From an archaeon (GTDB taxonomy: Archaea > Thermoproteota > Nitrososphaeria > Nitrososphaerales > JACAEJ01): a stretch of 64,000 nucleotides of DNA. Shown piece after piece: positions 13,168-38,012 of this stretch; the first letter of the stretch is position 1; the number at the start of each line of letters is the position of its first letter. Made by a program: the position numbers and the translations under genes. The notes below the pieces were generated by a model, which saw only the letters and a program-made list of their open reading frames with translations, did not search any database and had not been told where the DNA came from. The stretch is from positions 7,427 to 71,426 of the forward strand of contig JACGUG010000002.1 in the NCBI GenBank assembly GCA_024256285.1, given 5' to 3'.

Positions 13168-13215
13168 AAAAGGTGTAGGCTTAACCATCAACCCGCCCCA
13201 ATAGATTGGGAGACT
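13168..13215 (-). repeat. dispersed ~50-nt element, copy 1 (candidate sRNA/terminator module)
   Basis: The minus strand reads AGTCTCCCAATCTATTGGGGCGGGTTGATGGTTAAGCCTACACCTTTT. It shares the GTCTCCCA, CTATTG and TACACC-Tn blocks with the copies at 23013, 26891 and 37965. Confidence 0.6.
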
Positions 13216-13281
13216 AGACATTTGATTTTATAGGGATAGCAAAAGGTTATACTTTTTAAGTTTGAAGTAGAATCTATCCTT

Positions 13282-14061
13282 ATGCAGTCCAAAATCTACA
13301 AAGAGCCTCAACTCAAGGATCCGTACATGGTTGCGGGACTCCCTGGCATAGGTTATGTTGCAAAGCTGTCGGTTGACTACTTGATCAAGGAATTGAAAGC
13401 GGAGCTATTTGAGGAGCTTTATTCCTCATCGTTCCCATCTTATGTTCTAATCAGGAAAGATGGTACAGTCGAACTTCTAAAGAACGAATTCTATTACTGG
13501 AAAGATGACAAATCAAAAAATGACCTAATACTTTTTACTGGAAATACACAGGCGATCTCTTCAGAGGGACAGTATGAGGTTGCTAATGAAGTTTTAAACA
13601 GAGCCGAGAAGTTTAAAGTCGAAAAGCTCTTTGCATTGGCAGCCTATGTAACAGATAAACCAGTTGAAAAACCAAAAGTCTACGGAGCTGTCACTGAACA
13701 AGAACTACTGGAGGAGCTTAAAAAATATAAGGTCTTATCGATGGATGCTGGGAGTATCACTGGTACCAACGGACTGCTATTTGGGCTTGCAAAACTTAGG
13801 GACATTCAGAGCATCTGTTTGCTAAGTGAAACTCCTGGCTACAGGACTTCATCAGGTAACTTTCTGGCCGATGTAAGATCTGCTCAATCACTACTAGAAG
13901 TTTTGAGTAAGATGTTAGGCATAAAGATCGATATGAAGCCTTTAGAAAAAGAGGCCAAAGTGGCTGAAGAGTTCACTCGAAAAATGGAAGAATTAAAACG
14001 TCAGCAGGCTGAGATGATGCATAGGGCTGTTACCCCTCCACCAAAAGATATCTACACCTAA
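13282..14061 (+). CDS. PAC2-family proteasome assembly chaperone-like protein
   Basis: 259 aa. GLPGIGYVAKLSVDYLIKEL is the N-terminal signature of PAC2/PbaB-like proteins. Confidence 0.7.
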   Translation: MQSKIYKEPQLKDPYMVAGLPGIGYVAKLSVDYLIKELKAELFEELYSSSFPSYVLIRKDGTVELLKNEFYYWKDDKSKNDLILFTGNTQAISSEGQYEVANEVLNRAEKFKVEKLFALAAYVTDKPVEKPKVYGAVTEQELLEELKKYKVLSMDAGSITGTNGLLFGLAKLRDIQSICLLSETPGYRTSSGNFLADVRSAQSLLEVLSKMLGIKIDMKPLEKEAKVAEEFTRKMEELKRQQAEMMHRAVTPPPKDIYT

Positions 14062-14070
14062 GGTGGAACT

Positions 14071-14769
14071 ATGGCTTGGATAGAATACACCGGACAACCA
14101 GTAGTAAAAGAGGCCACAGCTATTGTAGGTTCTCCTGGACTAGGATCGATCGGGAAGATAGCAGTAGACTATTTAGTTGAAGAACTTCGACCGAAACTGG
14201 TTGCTGAGTTGTACTCGCCTCATTTTCCTATTCTTTACCAAACAAAGCCTTCCTATGTAACACATCCAGACTTCCCTGGTCAAGCCGGTATTAAGTTTCA
14301 AAGAGGCCAGGTGGAGCTCATAAAAGTTGAGTTCTACTCCTTAGCATCCCCACCACTATTGATAACTAAAGGATACCATGCCAATTTTAAAGGACAGTAC
14401 GAAGTAGCTGATCGAGTTTTGGATTTGTATCAAGAATTCGGAGTTAAGCGAATGATCGTACTCGCAGGTTATGGAACGGAAGGAAGAGATGTCTGCTGTG
14501 CTGCTACCGATCTGGAGCTCTTAGAAGAGCTAATGAAGTGCGGTATTAGTACAGGATACGAAGGCCCATTTTATGGTTTATCAGGACTTGTTTTTGGTCT
14601 AGGAATGCTAAGAGGCATAAGAGGTATGTGTCTATTTGGTAGAACTCAACCAAACCTAGTGGATCCAGAATATCCAGATCCAAAGGCAGCAAAAGCAGTA
14701 TTGGAGAGACTTAGTAGTCTGCTTAATTTTACCATAGATTTCTCAAAATTAGATGAGAAAAGAATTTGA
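14071..14769 (+). CDS. PAC2-family proteasome assembly chaperone-like protein (tandem paralog)
   Basis: 232 aa. GSPGLGSIGKIAVDYLVEEL is paralogous to the preceding gene. Confidence 0.7.
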   Translation: MAWIEYTGQPVVKEATAIVGSPGLGSIGKIAVDYLVEELRPKLVAELYSPHFPILYQTKPSYVTHPDFPGQAGIKFQRGQVELIKVEFYSLASPPLLITKGYHANFKGQYEVADRVLDLYQEFGVKRMIVLAGYGTEGRDVCCAATDLELLEELMKCGISTGYEGPFYGLSGLVFGLGMLRGIRGMCLFGRTQPNLVDPEYPDPKAAKAVLERLSSLLNFTIDFSKLDEKRI

Positions 14770-15005
14770 TGTAACTACCTTATTCGATGATAAGCTTCAA
14801 TATAGATCATCATCGTCGCCCAAACCAAGCCCCAGCTCTATCCAGCAAGAAGGACGAGGATAGGAAAAGTAGATATTTCGATGAAGGTTAATCCATTTCC
14901 TCCTTTACAACTCAGGAAGATCTCTGAATGACTGTAAGTAAGAAAGATCATTATTAAATGGGATCGTGTTGAACTTAATAATAATAGGATCGGGTAGACA
15001 ATGCC

Positions 15006-15620
15006 TTGAGAACTCTCATAATTAACAACTATTTGGATTCGAAGAAGGTCGAAGAGCTAACAGATGCTGTTAGGTTATTCAGTGATTATGAGGTCATAGA
15101 GTATCGAAAGACAGGATCTGGGTTCAAAGTTCCTAACGAATTCGATGCAATCGTTCTCTCAGGGTCTGAAGCAAGGATCGTCAAAGCTGGGCATGTCAAG
15201 ATGTACGAGGGAGTCGCCAATTTGATTGAGAATGTGAAATTACCGATTCTGGGAATCTGCTTTGGCCATCAACTTGTTTGTTTAGTATTTGGAGCTCAGG
15301 TTGGAGCACTAAAGAAGCCGGTGGAAACTTTTGAGAACGTCCGTATAGTTAAAAAGAACGGGTTGTTCTCAGGCTTCGAAGTCGGAGAAAAAATTCCTCT
15401 AGCTGAACATCATAATGACTACGTGAAGAAGAGAAGCTTGGAGAAGGCTAAACTTGAATTGCTTGCAGATTCATCGTCTTGCGAGGTCGAAGCGGTTAGA
15501 CACTTGACAAAACCCTTCTACGGGATTCAGTTCCATGCAGAACGGGTGCGTATAGGAAAAGAGGAGCATAGCGAAGGACTACATATAATTGGAAACTTCT
15601 TCGAGACTTCTAGAAGGTAA
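15006..15620 (+). CDS. class I glutamine amidotransferase
   Basis: ILGICFGHQL carries the nucleophile Cys and IQFHAE the His/Glu. The start is TTG in the ORF track. Confidence 0.8.
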   Translation: MRTLIINNYLDSKKVEELTDAVRLFSDYEVIEYRKTGSGFKVPNEFDAIVLSGSEARIVKAGHVKMYEGVANLIENVKLPILGICFGHQLVCLVFGAQVGALKKPVETFENVRIVKKNGLFSGFEVGEKIPLAEHHNDYVKKRSLEKAKLELLADSSSCEVEAVRHLTKPFYGIQFHAERVRIGKEEHSEGLHIIGNFFETSRR

Positions 15621-15750
15621 AACTTAGTGTTAGACATATCTATAAAAGGTGTCCAAGATTTATTTCAAGAGACATCATCTTAAAGTTTAGCTCTCATATC
15701 GTCAAAAAACTATAAAAGATTGTTTACTACTGTTGTTGAACACGATATGA

Positions 15751-16560
15751 TTGGTGTTCAGCATCGAATTTGTGGCACTCCTATTGATCGGAGTGGCTAT
15801 CGGTGCTTTTGGAGTACTTGTTGGAGCAGCAGGTGGTTTCCTAACCGTTCCACTATTGATATCTGGGTTTGTACTTGAACCAAGGATTGCTGTTGGGACT
15901 AGCTTACTGTTCATGTTCTCCAGCACACTATCTGGTAGTATAGCATACTCTAGGCAAGGAAGAGTAGATTTCCGCATAGGATTGTTATTTGCAACCTTGA
16001 CTATACCTGGATCTATCCTTGGTGCTCATATTACGGGATATTTCGAACCAAATCTGTTCAAAATACTCTTTGCGACGATTCTTCTCCTTGCCTCCATCTT
16101 TCCAGTTGTGAAACCGATTGAGGAGAGTGTTATCCCCAAGCTTCGAAACGGATACGTGCGAACGCTAACAGATCGCTATAGGAAAAACTGGGAGTATGTG
16201 GTTGATCTGCCTCGTGGACTCCTCTTCAGTCTGGCTATAGGATTCGCCTCCAGCATCTTCGGAATAGGAGGGGGGCTCATCTATGTCCCTGTGATGATAT
16301 TTCTCCTAGGCTTCCCAACTCACATATCGGTAGCTACGTCACGGTTCATAGTCACCTTCATCACCCTTGCAGGCTTTCTCTCCCATGCATCATTAGGGAA
16401 TGTCCAATATGACTTTGCAATACCGATGGCATTAGGCGGAGTAATTGGTGGGCAGGTTGGCGCCATGATCTCCCGTAAGACAAGAGGCACCATAATACAA
16501 AGGCTACTCGGTCTGACCCTGATTCTTGTTGCTGCAAAACTCATATTGGAGATCGTGTAG
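15751..16560 (+). CDS. TSUP (TauE/SafE) family anion exporter
   Basis: 269 aa, polytopic, with the duplicated 4-TM pattern and GxGGG motifs (GAAGGF, GIGGGL). Confidence 0.8.
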   Translation: MVFSIEFVALLLIGVAIGAFGVLVGAAGGFLTVPLLISGFVLEPRIAVGTSLLFMFSSTLSGSIAYSRQGRVDFRIGLLFATLTIPGSILGAHITGYFEPNLFKILFATILLLASIFPVVKPIEESVIPKLRNGYVRTLTDRYRKNWEYVVDLPRGLLFSLAIGFASSIFGIGGGLIYVPVMIFLLGFPTHISVATSRFIVTFITLAGFLSHASLGNVQYDFAIPMALGGVIGGQVGAMISRKTRGTIIQRLLGLTLILVAAKLILEIV

Positions 16561-16586
16561 AGAAACAAGTAGAAGAATCGGATAAG

Positions 16587-16675
16587 CGGGCCCGGTGGGA
16601 TTTGAACCCACGACCTCTGGCTCCGGAGGCTTACGCAACTTTACAGCGCCCTGATCCATGCTAGGCTACGGACCC
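16587..16675 (-). tRNA. tRNA-Arg (anticodon CCG) with a 13-nt intron at non-canonical position 29/30
   Basis: The hand-folded cloverleaf has acceptor stem GGGTCCG/CGGGCCC, D arm GCCT..GGGC, T arm GTGGG-TTCAAAT-CCCAC and variable loop AGGTC. The anticodon arm CTGGC-CTCCGGA-GCCAG forms only after removing TAAAGTTGCGTAA (plus-strand 16631-16643). No CCA is encoded. Confidence 0.85.
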
Positions 16676-16725
16676 ATCTTATTACATCTCACACATATAT
16701 ATAACAACTAAATTTTATCCATTAG

Positions 16726-17430
16726 GTGCTTTTGATGGATTTGAAGGGCTTTGCTATCGATATCGATGGTACTATAACTGAAGATGGGGGGGTTATCAAC
16801 CTCGATGCTGCCTATGCTCTACGCTGGCTTAATAAGATGGGCTATAAAGTGATATTCGTAAGTGGTAGGAGTGCATGGGAGGTTCTGGCTTTATCTGTCT
16901 ACATGGGCACCACAAGAGTAGCAGTAGGAGAGAATGGGGGGGTTGTTGCAACTTCCCCTATAGATATGTTCTTATTGGCAGACATATCTCATAGCATGAT
17001 GGCTTATGATCATCTCTCTAAAAAGATCAAAAATGTTAAGAAGAAAAAGGTCTTTCCCCGCCTCACTGAAGTCGTCTTAGAGAGAAATTTCAACCTTAAT
17101 GAAGGGAGAAAGATCCTTGATGAGAGTGGTCTGCCGGTCACGATTCATGACAGCAAGTATGGTTACCATCTATCACATAGGGCAGTAAGTAAGGCAAGTG
17201 GTCTGAAAATTGCTGCGAAGAGTCTTGGGTTGGATGTGAGCCAGATCATTGCTATTGGCGATAGTGACATAGACATCCCTATGTTCGAAGTATGTGGTTA
17301 CAGCGTGGCACTTGGAAATGCACCAGAGAACGTGAAGAAAAAGGCCGACTTCTCTGTGAATGTCAGCATGGGCGAAGGCTTTTTAGAGGCCATCCAGCAT
17401 ATCACCAACAAATTCATGAAAATTCATTGA
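16726..17430 (+). CDS. HAD-superfamily phosphatase (archaeal phosphoglycolate phosphatase/Cof-like)
   Basis: AIDIDGTIT is the DxDxT motif and GDSDIDIPMF is motif IV. An alternative ATG lies at 16735. Confidence 0.7.
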   Translation: MLLMDLKGFAIDIDGTITEDGGVINLDAAYALRWLNKMGYKVIFVSGRSAWEVLALSVYMGTTRVAVGENGGVVATSPIDMFLLADISHSMMAYDHLSKKIKNVKKKKVFPRLTEVVLERNFNLNEGRKILDESGLPVTIHDSKYGYHLSHRAVSKASGLKIAAKSLGLDVSQIIAIGDSDIDIPMFEVCGYSVALGNAPENVKKKADFSVNVSMGEGFLEAIQHITNKFMKIH

Positions 17431-17442
17431 CGAGGAGACGCT

Positions 17443-19347: not shown

Positions 19348-19373
19348 CAGTTGATGTTTTAGATTATAGGGAT

Positions 19374-20612: not shown

Positions 20613-20648
20613 CTTAACTTAAGTATGCGATTTTGCTAGTTAAGTTAA
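20609..20648. terminator. 11-bp inverted repeat between convergent thrC and the HEPN gene
   Basis: TTAACTTAACT (20609-20619) pairs with AGTTAAGTTAA (20638-20648) around an 18-nt loop. It overlaps the thrC stop codon. Confidence 0.35.
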
Positions 20649-21467
20649 TTAGTATCTACTATCTTTTTTATCGACGTTTCTTATCAATTCTTCTTTAAGA
20701 TAGAGTTTGGAAGAAAGTGCTTTATCGATTGCTTTTTGAATGTATATACTCGGAATTTTTACGTCGTTAAAAGTAATTTTCTTCTTTCCTCCATGAACAA
20801 TAGCACTTCTTAAATCATAGAAATCACCAATTCTTTTTGAAATTTCAAATCTCTCTGTTTCATCATCTGCTATGAAGCTAGAGAGTCTACATTTGAGATT
20901 TTCCTTGATTTTTTCTCTATTGCTGAAAAGAACTTCAGCAGTAATCGCTAGGTTATTTAAAACTTCATCCAAATGACCTCTGTCAAATGTCTGTAGTGCA
21001 AAAAAATAATAACGGAGAGCTTGGCCAAGATATCCGCCCATTATTCTTTGAAAATCTTTTTCAAATTTTAAGAAATACTCTTTGGTTAAAAGAATTGATT
21101 TGCTAAGCTCAGAATTCATATCTTCCTCCATATTAGCTTTCTTAAATTTTGGAAATGAAACTTTCTTTTTTCCGAGGTCATTTAACGTAGATATCGGGGT
21201 TGCAGCACCTACTTTATGAGTTACAACTGTATTATATAACAAAGCACGTAGAAGAAGAAAGAAATCAATATATGTAATGGCTTCCGTAAAATGGTTTGAT
21301 TCATCTTCTGAACCGACGTATGCAAAAGCAAAAAATTGCGAATCGCTAGAAGGGTATTTTTCCCAAGCATTTTCTAGAATTAATCTTTCAGATACTTGTA
21401 GTCTTCCTATGGTAAAGGGCAATATTTCACTTTTTCCACTTAAGAGAAATTCTATCTGATGTATCAC
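20649..21467 (-). CDS. HEPN-motif protein (predicted RNase-type toxin/defence component)
   Basis: 272 aa. The C-terminal helical region ends in FYDLRSAIVHGG, an Rx4H motif. A spot GC count is about 30 percent. Confidence 0.55.
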   Translation of the reverse strand: MIHQIEFLLSGKSEILPFTIGRLQVSERLILENAWEKYPSSDSQFFAFAYVGSEDESNHFTEAITYIDFFLLLRALLYNTVVTHKVGAATPISTLNDLGKKKVSFPKFKKANMEEDMNSELSKSILLTKEYFLKFEKDFQRIMGGYLGQALRYYFFALQTFDRGHLDEVLNNLAITAEVLFSNREKIKENLKCRLSSFIADDETERFEISKRIGDFYDLRSAIVHGGKKKITFNDVKIPSIYIQKAIDKALSSKLYLKEELIRNVDKKDSRY

Positions 21468-21851
21468 GATTCATAAGTAGTATCTGCATTCATTTGAGTT
21501 TTTCTTAAGGTCTATTTCAATTAATTTGAAGATGGATGTGAGCTTGTAATCCGTAGAACACAACTGAGAGCTAAACATTTATTCTATAGCCCTAGCTTAA
21601 CACAAAAGCAGAACCCTAAATTTAAGGAAATAGGTTAACTAGCCTTTTTCGTTTAAAACATGGTTTTTTTGCATTCGTTATAATATTATATAAATATAGC
21701 CAAAATTTTCGTGGCTTTCGAACAGGGACAAAGGGTTTAAGGGTTGTTTTGTACTTCCTAAATAAGACGGGTTTTCTATTAACTCCTTATATAGGGTTAA
21801 GAGAAAGACTGAACTATTTACTTAAGATTATTCCAATTACAAAAGAGTACA

Positions 21852-21885
21852 AAGTGTAAAGCCTAAAGCATACGAAAGGAGACTC
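21852..21885 (-). repeat. degenerate copy of the dispersed element
   Basis: The plus strand reads AAAGTGTAAAGCCT..GGAGACT, compared with the AAGGTGTAGAGGCCT..GGGAGACT consensus. The CAATAG block is missing. It lies about 65 nt downstream of the second HEPN gene on the same strand. Confidence 0.3.
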
Positions 21886-21953
21886 AGTTAAAGTGAAGGA
21901 TGATTCTGAGATTTTGGCAGTTCAAGTTAAGAAAAGGATCCTATAAATTATTT

Positions 21954-22748
21954 TTAGAAATTCGAAGAATACCACATGGTGAGAGTGGTGGCACCATAAA
22001 GTGCATTTACTGCTTCTCTATCGGATACTGGAAATCTACTTCGGTGAACAGCTGATATTCGAGATTTGTTAACAGTCTCGATTGCTCCCGAAATATCTGA
22101 AGGAAAATCTATTTTTTCTTTAACCTTATAATACAATTCTCCTAAAGGAACATCTGGTGCGTATTCTTTGAATTGCTCTTCATAAAGGTCTGCTAGAATA
22201 CTCTCAACAGTAATTGCAGATAAGACTATGGATGTTCTCCATTCTTTCGACGAATGATACTTAACTGCACCTTTAAGAAAATCTCTTAGGTCTTTTGGTA
22301 CCGCTGTAGCTTTTTCGCTATGTTCTAACCATAGACGGACGGCCAAGGGGTAGGGTCGAAATGTGTAGCGGGATGAAAATGTTTGTCTATGACGGAGTTG
22401 ATTAACACTTTCTCCTATATATGGAATACATTTTATAAAGTTTGTAAAAATTGACATTCCTTGTTCTTTTATAGTAGTGATATTAATAAATAACTCATTA
22501 GACTCACCGCTCATACTCGCTATAAAAACCACATCGGGAATATTAGGGAAAATCCGTGAATCTAACATTTTACCTCCATTCTCAGCTTTCATATGATCTA
22601 TAACAAAATTCCATACAGTATTTAATAATTTTAGATCTCCCATTAAAGCTGATCGGTTGACTGTGAATCGTCGATCAATGTCAAGGTATTTCAGAATCTC
22701 GTTAGGGCATTTTTCAGACAAAAATAATACTTTAACTACTTCATCCAA
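21954..22748 (-). CDS. HEPN-motif protein with an unknown N-terminal domain
   Basis: 264 aa. The C-terminus reads ..WRTSIVLSAITVESILADLYEE...NKSRISAVHRSRFPVSDREAVNALYGATTLTMWY, an Rx4H motif within a helical bundle pattern. A spot GC count is about 20 percent. Confidence 0.55.
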   Translation of the reverse strand: MDEVVKVLFLSEKCPNEILKYLDIDRRFTVNRSALMGDLKLLNTVWNFVIDHMKAENGGKMLDSRIFPNIPDVVFIASMSGESNELFINITTIKEQGMSIFTNFIKCIPYIGESVNQLRHRQTFSSRYTFRPYPLAVRLWLEHSEKATAVPKDLRDFLKGAVKYHSSKEWRTSIVLSAITVESILADLYEEQFKEYAPDVPLGELYYKVKEKIDFPSDISGAIETVNKSRISAVHRSRFPVSDREAVNALYGATTLTMWYSSNF

Positions 22749-22764
22749 ATTTTTTGTTATTTCA

Positions 22765-22956
22765 TCATGTTTTAGAGTTTCTTTTTTCGATTTTTTTAGC
22801 TAATTCAACTAACTCAGCCGATTGTTTCTCATCTGCTTTAATATTTTCAGCCATATCTTTAAAGAATTGTGGAAGCCTAGAGAAATCGACCTTAATCAAG
22901 CTATTATATACACCACTTTTTAGAGGATTTGAGAGATACTTTATAATATAATCCAA
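22765..22956 (-). CDS. 63-aa hypothetical protein, upstream partner of the HEPN gene
   Basis: The ORF ends 16 nt before the start of 21954..22748 on the same strand. It has a charged helical C-terminus (ADEKQSAELVELAKKIEKRNSKT). Confidence 0.4.
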   Translation of the reverse strand: MDYIIKYLSNPLKSGVYNSLIKVDFSRLPQFFKDMAENIKADEKQSAELVELAKKIEKRNSKT

Positions 22957-23012
22957 ACTATGTATAAAATCATATATCGGCTAATAATCTTTACTAATCT
23001 TCGATCTCCACC

Positions 23013-23065
23013 AAAAAATAAGGTGTAGAGGCCTTCTAACCCAGCCTCAATAGGTCTGGGAGACT
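23013..23065 (-). repeat. dispersed ~50-nt element, copy 2
   Basis: The minus strand reads AGTCTCCCAGACCTATTGAGGCTGGGTTAGAAGGCCTCTACACCTTATTTTTT. It starts 37 nt downstream of the hisS stop on the same strand. Confidence 0.6.
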
Positions 23066-23101
23066 TTACTTAACTCATCAATTTCGAAGGGTTAAATTGT
23101 C

Positions 23102-24391: not shown

Positions 24392-24478
24392 CTTAGATTC
24401 AACTACCTTTTTTCATTTAAAGAGCCTTTCCTTTGAATGAAATTGCAATTCGTGTTATTTAAAATGTTTCGAATTTAT

Positions 24479-25483
24479 CTATCGCTTAGTCTCTTTCTTC
24501 TTGGTTGCTGTGAAACCAGATTCTTTGCCTATCCTGCCAAGCTCGGCTATCATAGCCGTGAGTTGAATGTCTGGATGGGCACCTACTATCAGCCTATAAT
24601 CGTACTTTGCCAAGGCTTCTGAGACTTCATCTAGATTCGGCAAGTCGAGCTTGAATATCTCTTCATTCGCATACTTTATTACATCCCGCTCAGACATGCC
24701 ATAAACCCTCATCAACTCCAAGAGCTTCTCTCTCGCTTGCTTGAACTCCCCCCTTAAAGCTAGATCGACCAGATTTCCTACCTCAGATTTCCCTGATATT
24801 CCAGCGGTCTTCTTGACATTCTCAACGTTCACTTTACCAAAAGATGCCGATGATTGAAGTGTGTTTATGGCTAGCCTCAGATCTCCTCTACTTATCTCGT
24901 AAATCAGGCTCAGAGCCTTATCTTCGAAATCAACTTCTTCCTCTTTGCAGATATACCTCAAATGATCTACAACATCTTCCTCATCCAAGCGAAGGAACCT
25001 GAAGACAGCGCATCTGCTCTGAATGGGCTCTATTATCCCTGAAGAGTAGTTACAGACCAGTATGAACCTACATATCCTTGAGCTTTCCTCCATTATCCTC
25101 CTCAAGGCCGTCTGTGCATCGTTGGTCATCTCATCGGCTTCATCTAGTATTATTATCCTAAGGGGGACTTCGCCACCTATGCCAACATATCTCGAAAAGG
25201 TCTTCACTCTATCTCTAACTATATTTATGCCCCTCTCATCTGAAGCATTAAGTTCTAGTGTGTAATCCCTCCAAGAGCCTCCCAGTATCTTTCTTGCTAT
25301 GCAGAGAGCAGCGGTTGTCTTGCCAGTGCCAGGTGGACCGGCGAAGAGCAGATGTGGCATCTCGCTTGGAGAGTTCAGCATGGACAGTAGTCTCTCTACT
25401 ATAGTCTTTTGATTCACCAAATCCTTCAGCTCTACAGGTCTATACTTCTCCACCCACATCAAGGTCTCTATTCTAGCCATCAA
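24479..25483 (-). CDS. rfcS: replication factor C small subunit
   Basis: 334 aa with WVEKYRP, GPPGTGKTT, ILDEADEM and the SRC motif (QSRCAVFRF). Confidence 0.92.
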   Translation of the reverse strand: MMARIETLMWVEKYRPVELKDLVNQKTIVERLLSMLNSPSEMPHLLFAGPPGTGKTTAALCIARKILGGSWRDYTLELNASDERGINIVRDRVKTFSRYVGIGGEVPLRIIILDEADEMTNDAQTALRRIMEESSRICRFILVCNYSSGIIEPIQSRCAVFRFLRLDEEDVVDHLRYICKEEEVDFEDKALSLIYEISRGDLRLAINTLQSSASFGKVNVENVKKTAGISGKSEVGNLVDLALRGEFKQAREKLLELMRVYGMSERDVIKYANEEIFKLDLPNLDEVSEALAKYDYRLIVGAHPDIQLTAMIAELGRIGKESGFTATKKKETKR

Positions 25484-25555
25484 TGATGATAAGGAAGGGG
25501 TATTTATAATGCATTACGATGTTTTACAACTTATAGACAGGATTGATGTGGGGAG

Positions 25556-26010
25556 ATGAATTCAAAGATCGTAGAAGATCCATCTCTAAGATATAGGAGG
25601 TATGTGTTTAAAGACAGGATCCATGCAGGCGAACTTCTGGCGGAAAAGCTTAGAAGGTATAAGACCGAAGATGCTTTTGTCCTGGCTAACCCTCTGGCGG
25701 GGTTCCAGTGGGATTCATCGTCGCCAGAGAACTCGACAAACCCTTTGACCTTATAATTGTCAGAAAGATCCCTATCCCCATGGAGCCTGAAGCAGGTTTT
25801 GGAGCGATAACCTTCGATGGCATAAAAGCCCTTAATGAGCCTCTGTTGAGACAGCTTGGTCTGACAAAGGAAGAGATCGATGAATGTTCTTCAAAGGTCA
25901 TCGAAGAGATAAGAAGGAGAATGAAGAAGTTCAGGCGAGAGAAGTCCTTTCCAGATCTAAAGAAAAGACTGTCATACTTGTAGATGATGGTCTTGCCTCT
26001 GGCTATACCT
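25556..26010 (+). pseudogene. phosphoribosyltransferase pseudogene (two frameshifts, 3' truncation)
   Basis: Three ORF fragments lie in three different frames. Together they align colinearly with the intact paralog at 26101..26772: RYVFKDRIHAGELLAEKL / GVPVGFIVARELDKPFDLIIVRKIPIP..EAGFGAITFDG / KTVILVDDGLASGYT. Similarity stops after DDGLASGYT. Confidence 0.75.
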
Positions 26011-26100
26011 TCAAAATTGAACGTCTAGTCTTCCACCCTACTGGAGCAGGGGATAAGCTCCTACACCCTATTTTATATCGAGAAATCCTCCCCAAAAGCG

Positions 26101-26772
26101 TTATAAGTTTAGATAATCCTTGACTTCCTCTTCGGATAGGTCGTACCATGATCGATATGCATCAGCTACAGCATAGGGGAATCCTTCCCTTACGTTTAAG
26201 CAGACGATCATGTCAGAGTAAGGTTCCACCAATTTGATGGCGTCTGCCGAAGCTGTTGGAGTGGCAATTATTATCTTCTTTGGCCCCTTTTTCTTCACCG
26301 ATATGGCCGTAGCCAGCATGCTATAGCCGGATGCCAAACCATCATCGATCAGCAAAACATCCTTGTTTCTAAGGTCTGGGAAGGGTTTCTCCTCTCTAAA
26401 AACTATCAGTCTCTTCTTGATCTCCTTCTTCTCCTCATCGACACACCTTTTTACCACTTCTTCGGATAAACCGAGATTCACAAGCAGGGGTTCATTAAAT
26501 ATTACAGAACCATCCCAAGTGACAGCACCAAATCCAGCTTCAGGGTTCCATGGTATGTGGATCTTCCTTACAACGATTACATCGAAGGGTAGGTTCAGCT
26601 CTTTAGAAACCACGTGGCCTACCGGTACCCCACCGGCTGGTATCGCCAGAACGATGGCATCCTTTCCTACTAGACCTTTAAGCTTCTTGGCTATCAGATG
26701 ACCTGCGACCATTCTATCCTCGAATACGTACTTTCTGTTTCTGAAAGCCGGTTCATCGATGAGTTTTGACAT
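26101..26772 (-). CDS. phosphoribosyltransferase-family protein
   Basis: 223 aa with the PRPP-binding loop VLLIDDGLASGYS. It is intact. Confidence 0.8.
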   Translation of the reverse strand: MSKLIDEPAFRNRKYVFEDRMVAGHLIAKKLKGLVGKDAIVLAIPAGGVPVGHVVSKELNLPFDVIVVRKIHIPWNPEAGFGAVTWDGSVIFNEPLLVNLGLSEEVVKRCVDEEKKEIKKRLIVFREEKPFPDLRNKDVLLIDDGLASGYSMLATAISVKKKGPKKIIIATPTASADAIKLVEPYSDMIVCLNVREGFPYAVADAYRSWYDLSEEEVKDYLNL

Positions 26773-26890
26773 ATTTCACAGAATTTTAGGTATAACCTCT
26801 TTTTAAGTATCTTCACATAATGGTAAAAGGAAAGTGAAGCCTTAAGCTCTCCTATGCATATAATTGTTAACCATCAACAATTGAACGTTT

Positions 26891-26946
26891 AGTCTCCCAG
26901 ACTATTGAGGCCAGGTCTAAGCTAAGGTCTCTACACCTTTTTATTT
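26891..26946 (+). repeat. dispersed ~50-nt element, copy 3 (plus-strand orientation)
   Basis: It reads AGTCTCCCAGACTATTGAGGCCAGGTCTAAGCTAAGGTCTCTACACCTTTTTATTT. ATATAA at 26858-26863 ends 28 nt upstream of the conserved 5' block. Confidence 0.6.
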
Positions 26947-27011
26947 AAAGAAGGTTCTCATACTACATGAACCAATATTCTCGTTAGAATCTAATCATTT
27001 AGAATAGGGGA

Positions 27012-27039
27012 TTCCTACTCTTCCCGGGAAGAGTAGGAA
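27012..27039. terminator. perfect 28-nt palindrome just downstream of the 27048..27716 gene
   Basis: TTCCTACTCTTCCC|GGGAAGAGTAGGAA has 14+14 nt with no mismatch. It ends 8 nt from the stop codon of the minus-strand gene. Confidence 0.45.
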
Positions 27040-27047
27040 ATTTGCTC

Positions 27048-27716
27048 TTAGACCACTATGTCACCCGTTGTGCCATAGTCAAAGTTGTTCCATGTTTGAC
27101 TCTTGTAATGGTATGTCCAACCCCAGCTGATTAATGTCAAAGGACTTGCTCCAGTGAAGTATGTGGAAAGGAAATTGAATAGTGTAGTTGGACCCGTCTG
27201 GCCTGCTCCATAAGTCCCGAGAAGAATGTCTGCTTTGGTCCCACCGTAATCGTATGTGCCAATATTTCCGAATGCTGATGTGTATCCTGTAGCTGTGAAC
27301 GTTGCTATATAGCCACCCTCAAATGTTCCCTGTGCGTCTTTAGATTGAGCGACCCCAGCTCCAGGGCTTAATGCTCCAGCAAACGTGTACCATTTTCCAG
27401 TATATCGGGCGACCACATAGAAGGTTCCGTCGGGCGCCTGCCAGACTTGAACGTGCTTGTTGTAATTATCCAAGGCCCAATAACCCACATTTCCTGAGTC
27501 TTCGTCGTTTGTGACTTTATGATTAATGTTTAAGATCAGTACGGATCCACTTGGAACATCACCAGCATTTACGAAACTGCCAAAGGTTGGATGAGTAGAT
27601 TTAGCCATCACAGGTACTGCGAATACAACCATTGACATTAGAAACATTGCAGCAGCGAAGATCGACAGTACCTTTCTATTCACTATTGCTTCCATTTTTC
27701 TTCCGGAAATATACAT
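27048..27716 (-). CDS. secreted/cell-surface hypothetical protein (beta-rich, G/T/Y-rich)
   Basis: 222 aa with an N-terminal signal-like segment (VLSIFAAAMFLMSMVVFAVPVMA). I recognise no catalytic motif. Confidence 0.6.
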   Translation of the reverse strand: MYISGRKMEAIVNRKVLSIFAAAMFLMSMVVFAVPVMAKSTHPTFGSFVNAGDVPSGSVLILNINHKVTNDEDSGNVGYWALDNYNKHVQVWQAPDGTFYVVARYTGKWYTFAGALSPGAGVAQSKDAQGTFEGGYIATFTATGYTSAFGNIGTYDYGGTKADILLGTYGAGQTGPTTLFNFLSTYFTGASPLTLISWGWTYHYKSQTWNNFDYGTTGDIVV

Positions 27717-28111
27717 TATTAGTTCAATTTTTTAAACTTTTTATATAAATATTATAAATAAAAACAATATTATCAAGCATTCTTGAAAAATAATCCAAAA
27801 TTTTAAAATATTTAACAATATTATATTTTATTGTAACGAAAACGTAGTAATAATAAATCGATCGATAAGTAAGATCGTAGTCGCTGTTCCTACGGCATCC
27901 ATAAGTGCTATACGGCTGATAATGCCTCATGTAGATGAAATCGTCTGTGAATATCAGAGACGATCTCTTCTTTGCAGTTGCCGATGCCTATGAGAGGTGG
28001 TACGATCTAAGTGATATGAGGTATAGAGATACTTGGGGGGATGAGAGACGAGTCTCAAGAGTGAAAGTTTAGATCCTTCATCTCCTTAGATGGCAGGGAT
28101 CTTAAATCGAC

Positions 28112-30304: not shown

Positions 30305-30401
30305 AGTTCATCACATCTGTGTGGGTTTGAGTGCTTTAATAAAGCATATCTGACTTTTAATCTATTCTACTTAAACCTTTTCGATCGTTTCTATCGATTC
30401 T

Positions 30402-31028: not shown

Positions 31029-31192
31029 TTAAGTTAAATGTCAATTTTTTCCATAAAAAAAGCTTTTGCTAAATTTAGTTTTACACCGTCCTCTTATAAA
31101 CGACCCTCCTAATTTTGTACTCTAAAGATTTTTAAATATAAAGTTACAAGTGATACTCCAATAAACAAAAGGTGGCTCAACCATCACAAAAA

Positions 31193-32583: not shown

Positions 32584-32918
32584 TCTTTAACCGCTGTTAC
32601 AACATAGATCACTACACATAAATAAGTTATGCTGGCATCACCACACTCATCTTGCCTTTAACATGAACATAGAGGGGTAATGGCGAATATAGCTATCGTA
32701 AAGAAGATGGGCATTTCAGATAGGCATTATTAGGCCGATAATCAAAGAGCCTGAGAATATACAACATTGAGGCATGTATCCAAAAAAACCCCAACTAAAC
32801 CTATTCTTGATATCGACCAATTTGATTTTTAGATCGGTTTTTAATATTCATAACACAGTCTTAACTTATTCACATAAAAAAGCTAATTTACTACTGGGTA
32901 GAAATCGGTCTGAAGGAG

Positions 32919-33863: not shown

Positions 33864-33883
33864 TACCATTACTACATCTTAAT

Positions 33884-34432
33884 TTGATTAAGTTAAAATA
33901 TATTGAAGAAAAATTACAATTGATGAAAAAACCTCCTGAAGATAAGATCGTAAATCATGTTGGGAAGGATGTCAAGCTTGGAAGGAACGTAAAGCTCTGG
34001 CACTTCACGTATATAGGGGACAGTACAAAGATAGGGGATAATGTAAAGATAGGCTCTCTTTCACATATAGATTACAAGGTCAAGATAGGCAATGATTGTA
34101 GGATAGAAGGTAATGTGTACATACCACCTTTGACCGTCATAGGCAACGGCGTATTCATCGGGCCTGGAGCCATCTTCACAAACGATCCATACCCCCCAAG
34201 CAAGAGACTTGCTGGAATAACCGTAGAGGATGGTGCCATAATAGGAGCCGGCTCTACCATAAGGTCAGGCATAAGGATAGGAAAGAAAGGCGTGATAGCT
34301 ATGGGAGCTCTGGTAACCGATGATGTGCCTCCAGATACAGTGGTCATGGGCATCCCAGCCAAGCCAGCATATTCACGTACTGAGTATGAAAAGAAGAGAG
34401 AAGATTGGGAGAAGGGTATGATCGTCGATTAA
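33884..34432 (+). CDS. hexapeptide-repeat (LbH) sugar N-acetyltransferase
   Basis: It has repeated [LIV]G hexapeptides (IGDNVKIG, IGNDCRIEG, IGNGVFIGPGA, IGAGSTI). Confidence 0.8.
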   Translation: MIKLKYIEEKLQLMKKPPEDKIVNHVGKDVKLGRNVKLWHFTYIGDSTKIGDNVKIGSLSHIDYKVKIGNDCRIEGNVYIPPLTVIGNGVFIGPGAIFTNDPYPPSKRLAGITVEDGAIIGAGSTIRSGIRIGKKGVIAMGALVTDDVPPDTVVMGIPAKPAYSRTEYEKKREDWEKGMIVD

Positions 34433-34683
34433 TCTGATAGTTTCCTTTTGATGTAGATATCCCTCAACTTGATCATGATAAGGATCCACATAACAGATAG
34501 AACTGTGGACAATGTCACTTTAAGCAAAGAATTGAAGAAGGTGAAGATATAATCCGTTCTTCCAGGGAAGAGGTCGATGGGCACGATCAGATGAAATATT
34601 ATATAAGATCCTAAAAAGACGAGTAACCAAGCCACACCTATGATCCCCATCAAAGGAAGAAGTCTCGACCTCAAATTAGACAC
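34429..34683 (-). CDS. small membrane protein
   Basis: 84 aa with two hydrophobic helices. It overlaps the GT4 gene by 8 nt. Confidence 0.45.
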   Translation of the reverse strand: MSNLRSRLLPLMGIIGVAWLLVFLGSYIIFHLIVPIDLFPGRTDYIFTFFNSLLKVTLSTVLSVMWILIMIKLRDIYIKRKLSD

Positions 34684-35722
34684 ACCATGTTGCCAGTGCC
34701 GTTATTACAGCAAGAAAAGCTGAAAAGGCAGAGAGCTTGAAGATATCTGACACAACTTCTCGCTCAGATAGAGGGCCGTCGATAAGTATCATCCTCACCA
34801 AAGTTGCAGGTGCTGAGGGGTTTTTAGATGCAGCAAGACGACTATCTGGAAGTAGGATCGTTGGTCTGGTCTTTATATTTCTGTGCTCTATAAACCCCTT
34901 TATGCTCGATAAGATGAAGAAAGAGTTCAGTATAGCAGGGAGGATGGCCATTACAGCGACGATCTCCACCCTACCAACTATCGCTATGGCGCAAAACATG
35001 GCACCCAAAGCCAGACTGCCAGAGTCTCCTGGAAATATCTTCGAAGGATACCTGTGAAATATGTAGAATGCTAAAGATGATGCGATCAGTGGTATGGTTG
35101 CTACCATAATAGTATGATCTGGTCTCAATGCCAAAGCAAAGATCAAGGGTATGGTAGTTATTACCATAAAGCTGCTCAAGGCACCATTTAACACATCCAT
35201 CATGTTCGTTGCATTCGAGACTATAGGTACAGCTAATAGCACCAGTATGGGATAGACTATGGAAAGCCTAACGCTACCGAATATGGGAAAGATAGGATGA
35301 AAATCATAGGTTCTTAAGAGAAGGATGGGTAAGCTCGCTAGGATGAGCAACCCAGGCTTTATTATCCCTCTATTGAATTTCATCCGATCGTCGATAAGAC
35401 CCACAGACCCTGCTATGACGGTCACCAAAGCTATAGATAGAATTCTCAGGTCTCCATAAATGAAGTATAAGATCGATTCAACGACTACTAAAGAGAATAG
35501 TATGGCAGGCCCTCCTGGCCAAGCTACTTTGGGCTTACCTTGTTTATGGTAATCTTCGACTACCGATCCCTTTTTTGGCAGAGTTTTAACTAAAGTAAGT
35601 GTCAGGAGATAAGTAAGGGAGAAGGCCAGGGCAAAACTAAAAGAAATGAGTATGATCAAACCAAATAGATCCATGCACCAATGGTTAAAGGAAGATGGAT
35701 TTAAGTATAATTCAACTTTCAA
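34676..35722 (-). CDS. glycosyltransferase family 4 (UDP-HexNAc:dolichyl-phosphate HexNAc-1-P transferase, AglH/WecA-like)
   Basis: It is polytopic and carries NATNMMDVLNG and FPGDSGSLALG. Confidence 0.8.
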   Translation of the reverse strand: MKVELYLNPSSFNHWCMDLFGLIILISFSFALAFSLTYLLTLTLVKTLPKKGSVVEDYHKQGKPKVAWPGGPAILFSLVVVESILYFIYGDLRILSIALVTVIAGSVGLIDDRMKFNRGIIKPGLLILASLPILLLRTYDFHPIFPIFGSVRLSIVYPILVLLAVPIVSNATNMMDVLNGALSSFMVITTIPLIFALALRPDHTIMVATIPLIASSLAFYIFHRYPSKIFPGDSGSLALGAMFCAIAIVGRVEIVAVMAILPAILNSFFILSSIKGFIEHRNIKTRPTILLPDSRLAASKNPSAPATLVRMILIDGPLSEREVVSDIFKLSAFSAFLAVITALATWCV

Positions 35723-35794
35723 AATAAATTTCTTAAATAAACTGTAAGTATCTTTTTTAGTAACTTTATAACGTAAGAATAAGAGGAGTGGTAC

Positions 35795-36415
35795 ATGTCT
35801 ACATCTAAGCTGGAGGCAGATGCAAAAGAGTTAAGCGAGATAGCCATCAAAAGTGGGGCAAGTAAGGCGAAACCCATCAAAGCTGAACAGATAATTGTTG
35901 ATGAGAGAGTTCTGCTAAAATGTAGGTACCCTCCATGTATGTGGTATGGACAATGCTTGATGTGTCCTCCCTTTACCCCATCGCCACAAGAATTTTCAAG
36001 ATACCTCCAAAAATATAGATATGCAGTAATAGTCCAGTTCGAGTTTCCTTACCCAGATGAGTTGGCAACGAGGGTGAATAAGGATGTAACGCTACCCGAT
36101 CTATTTAGGGAGATGGGGCGCAGGTTAGAGAACTCTATCGATGTAGCTTGGAAGGATTTACAGAAGATAGTTTCGATCATTGAAAGAGAGGCTTTTAACC
36201 GGGGATACTATTTTGCTACAGGTCTATTAGCAGCTTCATGTAGGTTGTGTGATAGATGTAATCCAGATATGCCTTGCAGGCATCCTTTTGAGGCTAGGCC
36301 CAGTATGGAAGCAGTTGGGATAGACGTTTATGCCACTATAAAAAACGCAGGTTTAGAAGCCACTTTTGAGCCCCGTGATAAGATAACCTTAACTGGTCTA
36401 GTTCTTTTAGATTAA
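35795..36415 (+). CDS. DUF2284-like Cys-rich metal-binding protein
   Basis: CRYPPCMWYGQCLMCPP and CRLCDRCNPDMPCRH. Confidence 0.6.
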   Translation: MSTSKLEADAKELSEIAIKSGASKAKPIKAEQIIVDERVLLKCRYPPCMWYGQCLMCPPFTPSPQEFSRYLQKYRYAVIVQFEFPYPDELATRVNKDVTLPDLFREMGRRLENSIDVAWKDLQKIVSIIEREAFNRGYYFATGLLAASCRLCDRCNPDMPCRHPFEARPSMEAVGIDVYATIKNAGLEATFEPRDKITLTGLVLLD

Positions 36416-36463
36416 TTAGATTCTCATTTTAGGCTCAAAGTTATATATCAGCTATTTGTAAGA

Positions 36464-36769
36464 GTGGTGAGAGTGGCGATGAAGATAAGTGAATTGAGAG
36501 ACGGGATGAGGAGAATCGACATCGAGGGTATAATTTCAGATATTCCTGAACCCAGGACTGTCACTTTAAGGACTGGGCAACAGGCAAGGGTAGCCGACTG
36601 TACCTTACAAGATGCTTCTGGCCCGATAACGTTGTCCCTTTGGAACGATGATATAGACAGGGTTCAAGTAGGTTCTAAGGTAAAGATAGAGAACGGTTAC
36701 ACGAATAGTTTTAGGGGAGAAGTAAGGTTGAACGTGGGAAGGTATGGGCGGCTCATTATCCTAGAATGA
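36464..36769 (+). CDS. OB-fold nucleic-acid-binding protein (SSB/RPA-like single OB)
   Basis: About 96-101 aa. ..VADCTLQDASGPITLSLWNDDIDRVQVGSKVKIENGY..FRGEVRLNVGRYG is a typical OB pattern. An alternative ATG lies at 36479. Confidence 0.6.
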   Translation: MVRVAMKISELRDGMRRIDIEGIISDIPEPRTVTLRTGQQARVADCTLQDASGPITLSLWNDDIDRVQVGSKVKIENGYTNSFRGEVRLNVGRYGRLIILE

Positions 36770-36837
36770 TACCAAACAATAGAGCCTTCGATAAGAGGAC
36801 TGAAGTCACATCTCATAAGAGGAAACGTATACCTTTG

Positions 36838-36863
36838 AAAGCCTAGGGCTAAAGAGAGGCTTT
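36838..36863. terminator. hairpin between convergent genes
   Basis: AAAGCCT (36838-36844) pairs with AGGCTTT (36857-36863) around a 12-nt loop. Confidence 0.3.
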
Positions 36864-36948
36864 AGGAGTATGTGATTTTAATTAACCATTCCTAGCCTTT
36901 GATCTCACATCTACACTGTCCTTTGAGCCTTCCAGTTATTATGTTATG

Positions 36949-37599
36949 TTATGTTGTTTCTGTTACCCTCTCTTCCACCTTTTGAGAAAGCAGTTGAGGA
37001 ATCTCTGGGAAGATCTCTTTCATCTGTTCCTCAGCTATTGCTGAAGCCTCGGCGAGAATCTTCTCCGCATCTTCATTTAAGATCTCAAAGCTTATCAGCT
37101 CTTCACCAGTTTGGCTGGCATTCACGATAACGTCATTGAGGAGGTGGCTTATCTCTCTCATTCCATTCTCGGCCTCAGGAACTACGCCTGCTAATCCTGA
37201 CTTGATACTTCTTATCACTGGAATGGTCGGGCCTATTGTGCTGGTTATATCACCTAAATCCTTCACGGTATCTAGCCTTAACACTATCTGCTCTAAAGCG
37301 AGTTTGGATTGTGTAATCATCTTGTTCATCCTCCTAACCTCGCTCAGCTCATTTGCGAACATAGATGCATGTTGCATATCACGCCTCTGAATGGATAAAA
37401 CTACATTATTGAAGATTTTAAGGCCTCTCTCCCTAATCCTAGTACAAGCCAAGTCTAGTTTGGCTATCTGCACCCGAATCTGTCTAATTGCCTGCTCAAT
37501 CATGGGCTTTAGAGGTTTATTTGGTCTAACGATGCCTCCCAACTTATCCTTTAGACTCTTAGACTCAACCTTATCCCAATTATCGATGAATCTGGTCAT
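36949..37599 (-). CDS. cdvB: ESCRT-III (Snf7/CdvB-like) protein
   Basis: 216 aa. The helical pattern ..HASMFANELSEVRRMNKMITQSKLALEQIVLRLDTVKDLGDI..PVIRSIKSGLAGVVPEAE.. and the acidic C-terminus resemble crenarchaeal CdvB as I recall it. Confidence 0.55.
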   Translation of the reverse strand: MTRFIDNWDKVESKSLKDKLGGIVRPNKPLKPMIEQAIRQIRVQIAKLDLACTRIRERGLKIFNNVVLSIQRRDMQHASMFANELSEVRRMNKMITQSKLALEQIVLRLDTVKDLGDITSTIGPTIPVIRSIKSGLAGVVPEAENGMREISHLLNDVIVNASQTGEELISFEILNEDAEKILAEASAIAEEQMKEIFPEIPQLLSQKVEERVTETT

Positions 37600-37646
37600 A
37601 TTATTCGTCTCAAAATATGTTGAGATTGTGAATTTTATATGGTTAA

Positions 37647-37661
37647 GATAATAACCCTTAA
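37647..37661 (+). repeat. 15-nt direct repeat, left copy
   Basis: GATAATAACCCTTAA is identical to 38044-38058. Confidence 0.7.
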
Positions 37662-37964
37662 CGAATTGGTTTAGTTTGGTTAACTATTAGAAAACCCCGG
37701 TATTGCTCTTCTTGTCTGCTTTAGGATAAATCTCTGACTTTATCGAAATCGAGCTCATCCATCGATCTTACAAGACTAAGCTCCTCTTGCAACTACTTCT
37801 TGTAAGAGCTTAATCCCCTCTTCACTTAAGAAACTTTTGATAAGGTGATTGATTAGGGTTTTATCTGCTTTGTGCAATAGTTGCTATAGACGGAGAAACT
37901 AACGGACGGATGAAGAACATTTTCCCATCAGCTACCCTACCTAAAATCTTGACTGCTCATTCAT

Positions 37965-38012
37965 AAAAAGGGTGTAGAAGCTTATCCCCTTGCTCCAATA
38001 GGGTGGGAGACG
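37965..38012 (-). repeat. dispersed ~50-nt element, copy 4
   Basis: The minus strand reads CGTCTCCCACCCTATTGGAGCAAGGGGATAAGCTTCTACACCCTTTTT. It lies about 150 nt downstream of the M50 protease gene on the same strand. Confidence 0.6.

Follow-up and report, generated by a model that had tools for sequence, protein, structure and literature searches.

A short structured repeat at the edges of inserted DNA in an archaeal chromosome: a candidate end module of non-autonomous mobile units

What is a sequence of ~50–65 nt, with conserved blocks flanking a short hairpin and a T-run at its end, doing at several unrelated loci of one archaeal chromosome? The question is posed by a stretch of 64,000 nucleotides, here called the window, from an archaeon of the Nitrososphaeria (GenBank assembly GCA_024256285.1, contig JACGUG010000002.1, positions 7,427 to 71,426 of the forward strand), in which the copies have about 50 nt of specific sequence in common. 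The present analysis suggests that the element is the leading-edge, or end, module of non-autonomous mobile DNA and that it doubles as an insulating terminator, a tentative reading to which we give a probability of roughly 0.42. It is carried by comparison with close relatives: in all four cases in which the edges were mapped, the element lies ~0–35 nt from one boundary of a block that is missing in relatives or flanked by repeats, and its 5′ end faces outward every time. The blocks themselves, as part of the same reading and at its odds, would form a small lineage-specific family, mobile or acquired, 0.4–3 kb in size, which brings accessory cargo without a recombinase of its own. An earlier note, made from the window sequence alone, had proposed either small-RNA (sRNA) genes with their own TATA box or a mobile terminator module. 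The second proposal fits the new evidence better and is preferred here; the first is a less likely rival.

The repeated family and its conserved features

The four copies that the earlier note had listed are exact in both coordinates and sequence. Copy 1 (13168–13215, minus strand; 57 bits) stands in the divergent intergenic stretch between a PAC2 gene and a 70-aa open reading frame (ORF); copy 2 (23013–23065, minus; 68 bits) lies 37 nt past the HisRS stop codon; copy 3 occupies 26891–26946 on the plus strand (70 bits); and copy 4 (37965–38012, minus; 73 bits), which has an orthologue in the sister species, lies 151 nt past the stop codon of an M50 peptidase gene. A fifth full copy, AGTCTTCCACCCTACTGGAGCAGGGGATAAGCTCCTACACCCTATTTT, was not in that note and was found via one of the extra matches to the 3′ block (copy 5, 26027–26074, plus; 76 bits). 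Two covariance models, the first built from seven copies and the second (R2) from eleven, searched the entire window with filters off; each recovered exactly these five full copies, at 57.2–76.5 and 54.7–76.5 bits, respectively, and with both the next-best match scored 12 bits. They are confined to the part of the window from 13 to 38 kb. The composite pattern TCCCA-N(1–8)-TATTG-N(10–40)-ACACC matches the window four times, where 0.02 matches are expected by chance, and the 3′ block followed by a T-run matches seven times against 0.64 expected; the 5′ octamer GTCTCCCA is not significant by itself (6 matches in the window against 2.3 expected). The conserved blocks had been described as invariant, which holds among the four copies first listed and fails beyond them, where GTCTTCCA, GTCTTTCA, GTCGCCCA, ATCTCCCA, TACTG, TATACC, CAAACC and GCCACC occur as variants.

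Three degenerate copies had also been put forward. The one at 12884–12905 (minus), a 3′-half copy reading GGCCTCTTCACCTTTTT, is significant (3 matches against 0 expected); it lies directly past the stop codon of the 70-aa ORF, which it and copy 1 bracket in direct orientation. The sequence at 21851–21884 (minus) is probably a decayed copy: it retains AGTCTCC, TACAC and T-rich sequence 70 nt past the stop codon of a HEPN-family gene, and it matches a two-block pattern with 0.01 expected, a pattern picked post hoc; the covariance model gives it no score. The third, at 31165–31190, is unsupported, as the covariance model finds no copy there. An additional 5′-block remnant at ~28049 was dropped because an outgroup has similar sequence at the same position, which marks it as ancestral 3′ flank. 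Coding potential was also dropped, since the lengths of the indels that separate copies are not divisible by three and copy 4 contains an in-frame stop.

The hairpin was examined in a structure alignment of 11 copies from the two species, an alignment that was itself fitted to the tested stem. The covarying stem proposed earlier, now written as a 5-bp GRRGC/GYYYC pairing, is borne out, with 94% of cells paired over the 11 copies compared with 39–66% when the 3′ partner is slid by one to three columns. Changes on both sides affect two of the five pairs (A-U to G-C and G-C to A-U; 7 cells), a count equalled by 1 of 500 shuffles and resting on few independent events; overall, the hairpin is modestly supported. 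The stem of copy 1 is weaker and offset by one position (GGGC/GCCU), and across the copies the loop measures 9–18 nt. Thermodynamically the stem is weak, and the partner that GRRGC takes in minimum-free-energy folds is often the 5′ box and not the proposed 3′ strand. An H-type pseudoknot was also considered, in which a second stem would join the 3–5 nt that precede UAUUG to the G-rich beginning of the loop. A helix of 3–6 bp can be drawn in 9 of the 11 copies (p = 0.007 against shuffled loops), L055a and L059Y, both from the sister species, being those without it; the pairings within a copy are no better than those between mismatched copies because the loops are G/U-rich, and the second stem, not being specific to a copy's own sequence, stays a tentative proposal.

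The T-run had been taken to mark the element's end, and indeed every one of the 11 copies has at least 3–4 T within 9 nt after ACACC. Judged by its sequence, this could serve as an archaeal oligo-T termination signal, for which 4–5 or more consecutive T in the sense strand are required where the transcription unit ends. Intrinsic terminators of the bacterial type combine a G+C-rich stem of at least 5 bp, a loop of 3–8 nt and a T-run 0–2 nt off the stem; the element does not have this form, and the 6-nt UACACC stands between its stem and T-run. A terminator scan of 25800–27100 flagged neither copy 5 nor copy 3, and its only terminator-like match lies at 27012–27039. The repeated family, with its conserved blocks, covarying hairpin and T-run, is real.

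Known classes of RNA were compared as well. The Rfam comparison proposed earlier turned out negative: no Rfam 15 family falls on any copy at the gathering threshold or at E ≤ 10, and the sole significant match in the window is a tRNA at 16587–16675, which overlaps no copy. The corresponding tRNA gene, the only one in the window (16586–16675, minus), is 90 nt long and contains an intron, and the ARAGORN call of tRNA-Phe with anticodon AAA is doubtful. Archaeal C/D-box sRNAs have a C box (RUGAUGA) near the 5′ end, a D box (CUGA) near the 3′ end, C′/D′ boxes and a kink-turn; here UGAUGA occurs only in the flank of copy 2, CUGA is not conserved, and no snoRNA family matches the copies. Archaeal H/ACA sRNAs are defined by a hairpin with a pseudouridylation pocket, a kink-turn or kink-loop with tandem G·A pairs, and an ACA box placed at ~14 nt from the pocket; an ACA does lie inside UACACC, but the 5-bp stem has no internal pocket, the variable parts fall short of the length that a guide needs, and GA dinucleotides are not conserved across copies (GAGGC, GGAGC and GGGGC variants). 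Both classes were rejected, and readings as a tRNA half, a CRISPR repeat or a preQ1-like riboswitch fail on sequence, on context and on the absence of Rfam matches. As for promoters, copies 2 and 3, like the sister-species copy L059X, have the A/T hexamer that was reported upstream of each copy, at −33 to −31; at the others its position varies or it is absent, and there is no clear positional A+T peak upstream of the copies. The sequence TAACCTTCGA, which recurs near several left junctions, was tried as a target or core motif and as a TATA box, proved inseparable from chance in A/T-rich DNA, and was not used.

Inserted blocks and the place of the element within them

The edges of the blocks were defined by comparison with the sister species (HK01M, HK01B and GCA_975956755.1; ~91% nucleotide identity to the window), represented by loci L055 (from HK01M) and L059, and with outgroup loci L057, L058 and L068. 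In the window, a 2.5-kb block (block B, 20623–23101, minus) lies between HisRS and the convergent PALP gene and opens with copy 2. It also holds a frameshifted HEPN-family gene, the degenerate copy at 21851–21884 and a 272-aa ORFan. The sister species and several of the outgroups examined pass directly from HisRS to PALP and lack the block. The HEPN-family cargo gene (21957–22956, minus) belongs to a widespread family of ~330-aa proteins, some of whose members are annotated as HEPN-domain proteins; its 264-aa ORF is frameshifted near 22780, with residues 1–58 and 62–333 of homologues in different frames. The converse case is found at L059 in the sister species, where a 2953-bp block, missing from the window and from outgroup L068, has the 13-bp sequence TAATCGAAGGTTA at both ends as a direct repeat without mismatch, which extends over two convergent stop codons. 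This block starts directly with an element copy (L059Y), contains a second copy in the same orientation, and carries as cargo a BtrH/DUF4872-like gene, MntP and a 138-aa ORF.

Copy 4 opens a much smaller, non-coding unit of 378 bp that begins 31 nt before the copy's core. The unit is flanked by a 19-nt direct repeat, at 38044–38062 upstream and at 37647–37665 downstream, the latter within the region upstream of the Snf7/CdvB gene. The two repeat copies are identical at 18 of 19 positions, a score reached by 0 of 500 shuffles, and the upstream one is degraded in the sister species. Through this repeat, the Snf7/CdvB upstream motif TTAAGGGTTATTATC is duplicated before copy 4.

The junction at copies 5 and 3 is the one that interrupts a coding sequence. 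Between EF-2 and RFC, outgroups L057, L058 and L068 carry a phosphoribosyltransferase (PRTase) gene in unbroken form, whereas in the window this ancestral gene is split by a block of ~1.84 kb (block C, 26013–27850, plus, right end approximate) into an N-terminal remnant (25556–26012, plus; aa 1–153, frameshifted) and a C-terminal remnant (27856–28039, plus; aa 162–215). The 5′ extension of copy 5 starts at ~26013, exactly where homology to the ancestral PRTase ends, which places the element ~15 nt from the breakpoint. Behind copy 5 the block contains a PRTase xenologue (26101–26772, minus) that is 53% identical to the ancestral protein, then copy 3 and a 222-aa ORFan (27048–27716, minus). The ancestral PRTase gene is now a split, frameshifted pseudogene, and it has been functionally replaced by the opposite-strand xenologue that lies within the disrupting insertion itself.

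Copy 3 marks a further difference between the species. Homology with the sister species runs at ~95% through the first ~15 nt of the element and breaks at ~26906; its 3′ half and the downstream cargo differ, and the 3′ half in the sister species resembles copy 1. In place of the 222-aa ORFan and the C-terminal PRTase remnant, HK01M has ~230 bp (L055 4757–4985) with a short Lys/Glu-rich ORF that has no counterpart in the window. The segment specific to the window includes the terminator-like match mentioned above, a perfect palindrome with a 12-bp stem, TTCCTACTCTTCCCGGGAAGAGTAGGAA, just 3′ of the 222-aa ORFan (27012–27039). Directly upstream of copy 3, and overlapping its 5′ extension, is a 7-bp inverted repeat (26862–26882, plus; AATTGTT-AACCATC-AACAATT), which the sister species shares and which no other copy was seen to have.

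Each of the mapped edge copies runs in the same direction as the resident gene that precedes it, be it HisRS, hexapeptide transferase, the truncated PRTase or M50 peptidase. More broadly, at 8 of 10 non-orthologous loci a co-oriented gene ends 9–151 nt before the element (HisRS, M50 peptidase, PRTase remnant, 70-aa ORF, HEPN-family gene, trpA, BtrH/DUF4872 and hexapeptide transferase), a marginal excess (binomial p ~0.055 against 0.5). The statement made earlier that copies 2 and 4 follow same-strand genes and that copies 1 and 3 do not agrees with this analysis, in which the latter two have no upstream co-oriented gene. Within the blocks, further full or decayed copies recur in the same orientation and give element–cargo–element layouts, and the types of 5′ flank and of hairpin body are assorted among copies. 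Of the four blocks, two have flanking direct repeats, one of 13 bp without mismatch and the other of 19 nt with a single mismatch. The far ends of the L059 and copy-2 blocks resemble an inverted 5′ half of the element, marginally so: comparison of the left end with the reverse complement of the right end, in register, gives p ~0.03 for L059 and ~0.027 for the copy-2 unit. The cargo consists of ORFans or of accessory genes such as the HEPN-family gene; cargo ORFs were considered as possible recombinases and rejected, with no recombinase-type match in searches of Pfam, NCBIfam, PADLOC, PHROGs and PDB sequences.

The genes around the copies are ordinary chromosomal ones (HisRS, ArgRS, RFC, EF-2, PAC2, CdvB/Snf7 and CODH/ACS). 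The HisRS protein of the window was matched to NCBI assembly GCA_024256295.1, contig JACGUF010000041.1, and its closest relatives are metagenome-assembled genomes (MAGs) named Candidatus Methylarchaceae (Nitrososphaerota), and Ca. Methylarchaeales have been described as an uncultured, cytochrome-containing lineage of methanogens within the Nitrososphaerota (PMC9478090). The window carries a CODH/ACS cluster of the CdhC/CdhD type together with an aldehyde:ferredoxin oxidoreductase gene (402–6689, minus), which fits the Wood–Ljungdahl and methyl metabolism described for the lineage. Its RFC small-subunit gene (24479–25483, minus) is free of inteins, as in the sister species (~330 aa); in relatives at ~78% HisRS identity (L045/L048/L050, ~7200–9540) RFC contains an intein (774 aa, PF14890).

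The element was seen only in the genome of the window and in the sister species. A pattern scan of 185,579 species-representative genomes returned true copies in HK01M alone (two extra copies), and the strict pattern has just 2 matches in the whole HK01M MAG; matches elsewhere (5 bacterial, 2 from metagenomes and 34 viral from IMG/VR) score at most 19.5 bits by covariance model and were rejected as chance. Syntenic loci of relatives at 73–85% HisRS identity, or at 77% Snf7 identity, have no copy. The sister species has orthologues of copies 3, 4 and 5, lacks copy 2, and has three copies that are absent from the window or lie outside it. The orthologous copies are conserved no better than the non-coding flanks, and substitutions hit the blocks once thought invariant.

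Competing explanations

In the reading that we favour, the 5′ extension, GTCTCCCA, CTATTG and the covarying hairpin with its CTAC foot would form the end that is recognised by the product of a recombinase or transposase gene in another part of the genome. The inward-pointing stretch of hairpin, CUACACC and oligo-U would stop transcription arriving from the upstream resident gene, and this termination would both insulate the cargo and supply the resident gene with a new 3′ end. A short RNA, whether a fragment of a 3′ untranslated region or a transcript of ~55 nt, would probably be a by-product, although it might have a role of its own. We favour this reading because passenger sRNA genes are not expected at the very edge of a block in four of four cases, and because a terminator that belonged to the resident genes should also be found in the sister genome. 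It would also explain the patchy distribution, the orthologues that show no extra conservation and carry substitutions in the "invariant" boxes, and the mixing of 5′-flank types with hairpin-body types.

Several observations weigh against it. Neither a transposase nor an integrase was found in the window or in the loci compared with it, and no pair of filled and empty sites shows the ~60-nt element moving alone. The two clear flanking repeats are unequal in length (13 and 19 nt), and none is significant at the units of copies 1, 2 and 5 or of the L002 copy. The terminal inverted repeat is not significant for the copy-5/copy-3 and copy-4 units, and no common right-end motif of the blocks reaches significance. 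On the side of termination, no co-oriented gene reads into copies 1 and 3, each of which has a TATA-like box, the stem comprises just 5 bp under a loop of 9–18 nt, and folding of single sequences compared with shuffled ones gives z-scores of −2.1 to +0.6, mostly ~0. Finally, the enrichment at block edges rests on ~170 kb from the two species.

Copies 1 and 3 are also where the serious rival, although we hold it to be unlikely at somewhat more than half the weight of the favoured reading, has its best evidence. Under it the copies would be independent sRNA genes, each with its own TATA box ~30–36 nt upstream, a transcript of ~55–60 nt and an oligo-U terminator, whose products act in trans through single-stranded CU-rich seeds (GUCUCCCA and CUACACC) on either side of the hairpin, for example on G-rich or Shine–Dalgarno-like targets; the genes would merely travel with neighbouring DNA, and primary 5′ ends would fall ~5–8 nt upstream of AGUCUCCCA at copies 1 and 3. 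These two copies stand in divergent or antisense contexts into which no gene reads, the ATATAA at −33 of copy 3 is kept in the sister species, and the hexamers of copies 2, 3 and L059X have a spacing compatible with that of the window's tRNA gene, where ~28–30 nt separate the TATA box from the mature 5′ end. Conserved unpaired blocks, a covarying stem and variable loops are the usual pattern of RNA genes, a T-run ends all copies, and multicopy sRNAs with UCCC seeds (LhrC, RsaE) are known in bacteria. Set against this, the family is limited to two sister species, between which copies have been gained and lost, and its orthologues are not visibly more constrained than their flanks, with changes that hit the putative seeds. 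The upstream A/T boxes show no positional peak, folding z-scores are ~0, and Rfam offers no match. The position at the block edge in the four mapped cases is unexpected of passenger genes, and two copies there are especially awkward: because copy 5 and L059Y abut an insertion junction, they have no room for a promoter of their own in the inserted DNA, and the promoter would have to come from unrelated target DNA.

The remaining explanations keep the link with mobile DNA or do away with it. A cassette-type recombination site similar to an integron attC, with cargo plus one structured element as the unit, is improbable in our estimate. Its recombinase would cross over in the conserved 5′ boxes and would insert, excise or swap cassettes at elements or secondary sites, leaving short arrays, and the direct-orientation element–cargo–element layout of four units (copy 1/12884, copy 2/21851, copy 5/copy 3 and L059Y/L059X) is what it would leave. 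It would also account for copy 3, whose 5′ part is common to the sister species while the 3′ half and cargo differ, although divergence plus an adjacent indel would do so equally; for the assortment of flanks and bodies, the body of L055b resembling copy 1 and not its positional orthologue, copy 3; and for the direct repeats that bound two units, except that these vary in sequence and length between insertions. Integrons and integrase-less attC clusters have been reported in archaeal MAGs (PMC9668308). Here, however, there is no integrase nearby, no complementary R″/R′ core pair and no long imperfect hairpin (the stem has 5 bp), the arrays have two units only, and they lie at unrelated chromosomal sites with no platform site; the narrower claim that the element is the recombination site of an undescribed archaeal gene-cassette system, which moves element plus cargo and insulates its cassettes while attC/IntI features are absent, is slightly less probable still.

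We consider it distinctly improbable that the element is a single-strand DNA hairpin, like repetitive extragenic palindromic (REP) sequences or the ends of IS200/IS605 elements, that a Y1 (HUH) transposase mobilises by cleaving at the CTAC foot. In 8 of 11 copies the 3′ strand of the stem runs straight into CTAC, which on the opposite strand reads GTAG (the others have TTAT in L059X, CGCC in L059Y and CTCA in L055b), and REPs carry GTAG at one end of the palindrome as the tag cleaved by RAYT transposases (PMC3733652). The stem is conserved as structure, not as sequence, and the copies are extragenic, often at gene 3′ ends. The left end of IS200, moreover, has a hairpin that terminates impinging transcription. 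Yet REPs are near-perfect palindromes of 20–40 bp in more than 100 copies, whereas this family has a 5-bp stem, a low copy number and no inverted pairs; IS200/IS605 insertion leaves no target duplication, as opposed to the 13- and 19-nt repeats of two units; the far block ends have no second hairpin; and no Y1 transposase gene was seen in the examined fraction of each genome. Least probable of all, and largely refuted by the presence/absence junctions, is an immobile gene-end terminator or 3′-untranslated-region motif, shared by descent or convergence, whose link to insertions would be an accident of sampling. The T-run ends and the position 3′ of co-oriented genes at 8 of 10 loci are what it predicts, although the orientation test is marginal. 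The HisRS and hexapeptide transferase genes lack the element in the sister species or in outgroups, ~50 nt of specific sequence (57–76 bits) are common to unrelated loci, and one copy interrupts a coding sequence.

Significance and comparison with known systems

To our knowledge, nothing has been reported on mobile DNA or small RNAs in Ca. Methylarchaeales. If the element is the true recognition end of a mobile unit, covariance model R2 would be a handle with which to catalogue recently acquired genes, and co-occurrence would offer a route to the responsible recombinase. It would also be a natural archaeal case of a mobile element with its own transcriptional insulator, and archaeal termination signals are poorly characterised. 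Were it an sRNA family instead, no earlier one would have been described from this lineage. On both readings the element explains the split and replaced PRTase gene and the HEPN-type cassette between HisRS and PALP.

The element belongs with the small structured repeats that are tied to mobile DNA and is not a member of any described family. Integron attC sites and their integrase-less clusters (CALINs), including those of Archaea (PMC9668308), resemble it in having one structured site per cargo unit, same-orientation arrays, cargo that varies at a shared site, and accessory or ORFan genes as cargo, here including a HEPN-type gene. They differ in that the sequence of attC is variable while the primary sequence of the element is conserved. 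Moreover, the element has no R″/R′ or L″/L′ cores and no long bottom-strand hairpin, and its insertions are at unrelated sites: GTCTCCCA and CTACACC do not complement each other, the element is not enclosed by a RYYYAAC...GTTRRRY pair, and no Phage_integrase-type protein that could be an integron integrase, and no attI, was found in the window or adjoining any copy. With miniature inverted-repeat transposable elements (MITEs) and other non-autonomous cargo elements, the blocks share the lack of autonomy, variable length, direct repeats in two cases and presence/absence polymorphism; they depart from them in having no convincing terminal inverted repeats, flanking repeats of inconstant length, and a conserved module at one end only.

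The left ends of IS200/IS605 elements and of their cargo-less derivatives (PATEs) come close in another respect, since they too have an inward-pointing subterminal hairpin that can terminate incoming transcription and no obvious long terminal inverted repeats. However, insertion of those elements leaves the target site unduplicated, and their right end bears a related hairpin, whereas two of the blocks have 13- and 19-nt repeats and the hairpin is at one end only; tnpA and tnpB are missing from the blocks, and Rfam gives no IS605-type RNA matches. Multicopy trans-acting sRNA families such as LhrC1–5 and RsaE are alike in forming clustered paralogues of ~50–110 nt with unpaired UCCC-type motifs, a hairpin and a U-tail. 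Those families are kept across species at fixed loci with defined promoters; the present one turns over rapidly, sits at the edges of insertions and has no detectable homology to any of them (Rfam negative).

By analogy, the element seems to work most like the REP elements, including their BIME arrangements, that are associated with RAYT (TnpA-REP) proteins. It is not one of them. REPs are near-perfect palindromes of 20–40 bp that usually number more than 100 and frequently stand as inverted pairs (BIMEs/REPINs), whereas the archaeal host of this family has five copies in 64 kb, with long conserved single-stranded boxes and a place at the edges of kb-sized cargo blocks, and no RAYT gene is among the ORFs examined. 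Both are nonetheless short extragenic repeats with a stem conserved in structure and a GTAG/CTAC tetranucleotide at the foot of the hairpin, both are patchily distributed among close relatives, and both have copies at gene 3′ ends, which in REPs are able to act as terminators or mRNA stabilisers and which here may end the transcripts of the genes that the inserted blocks adjoin.

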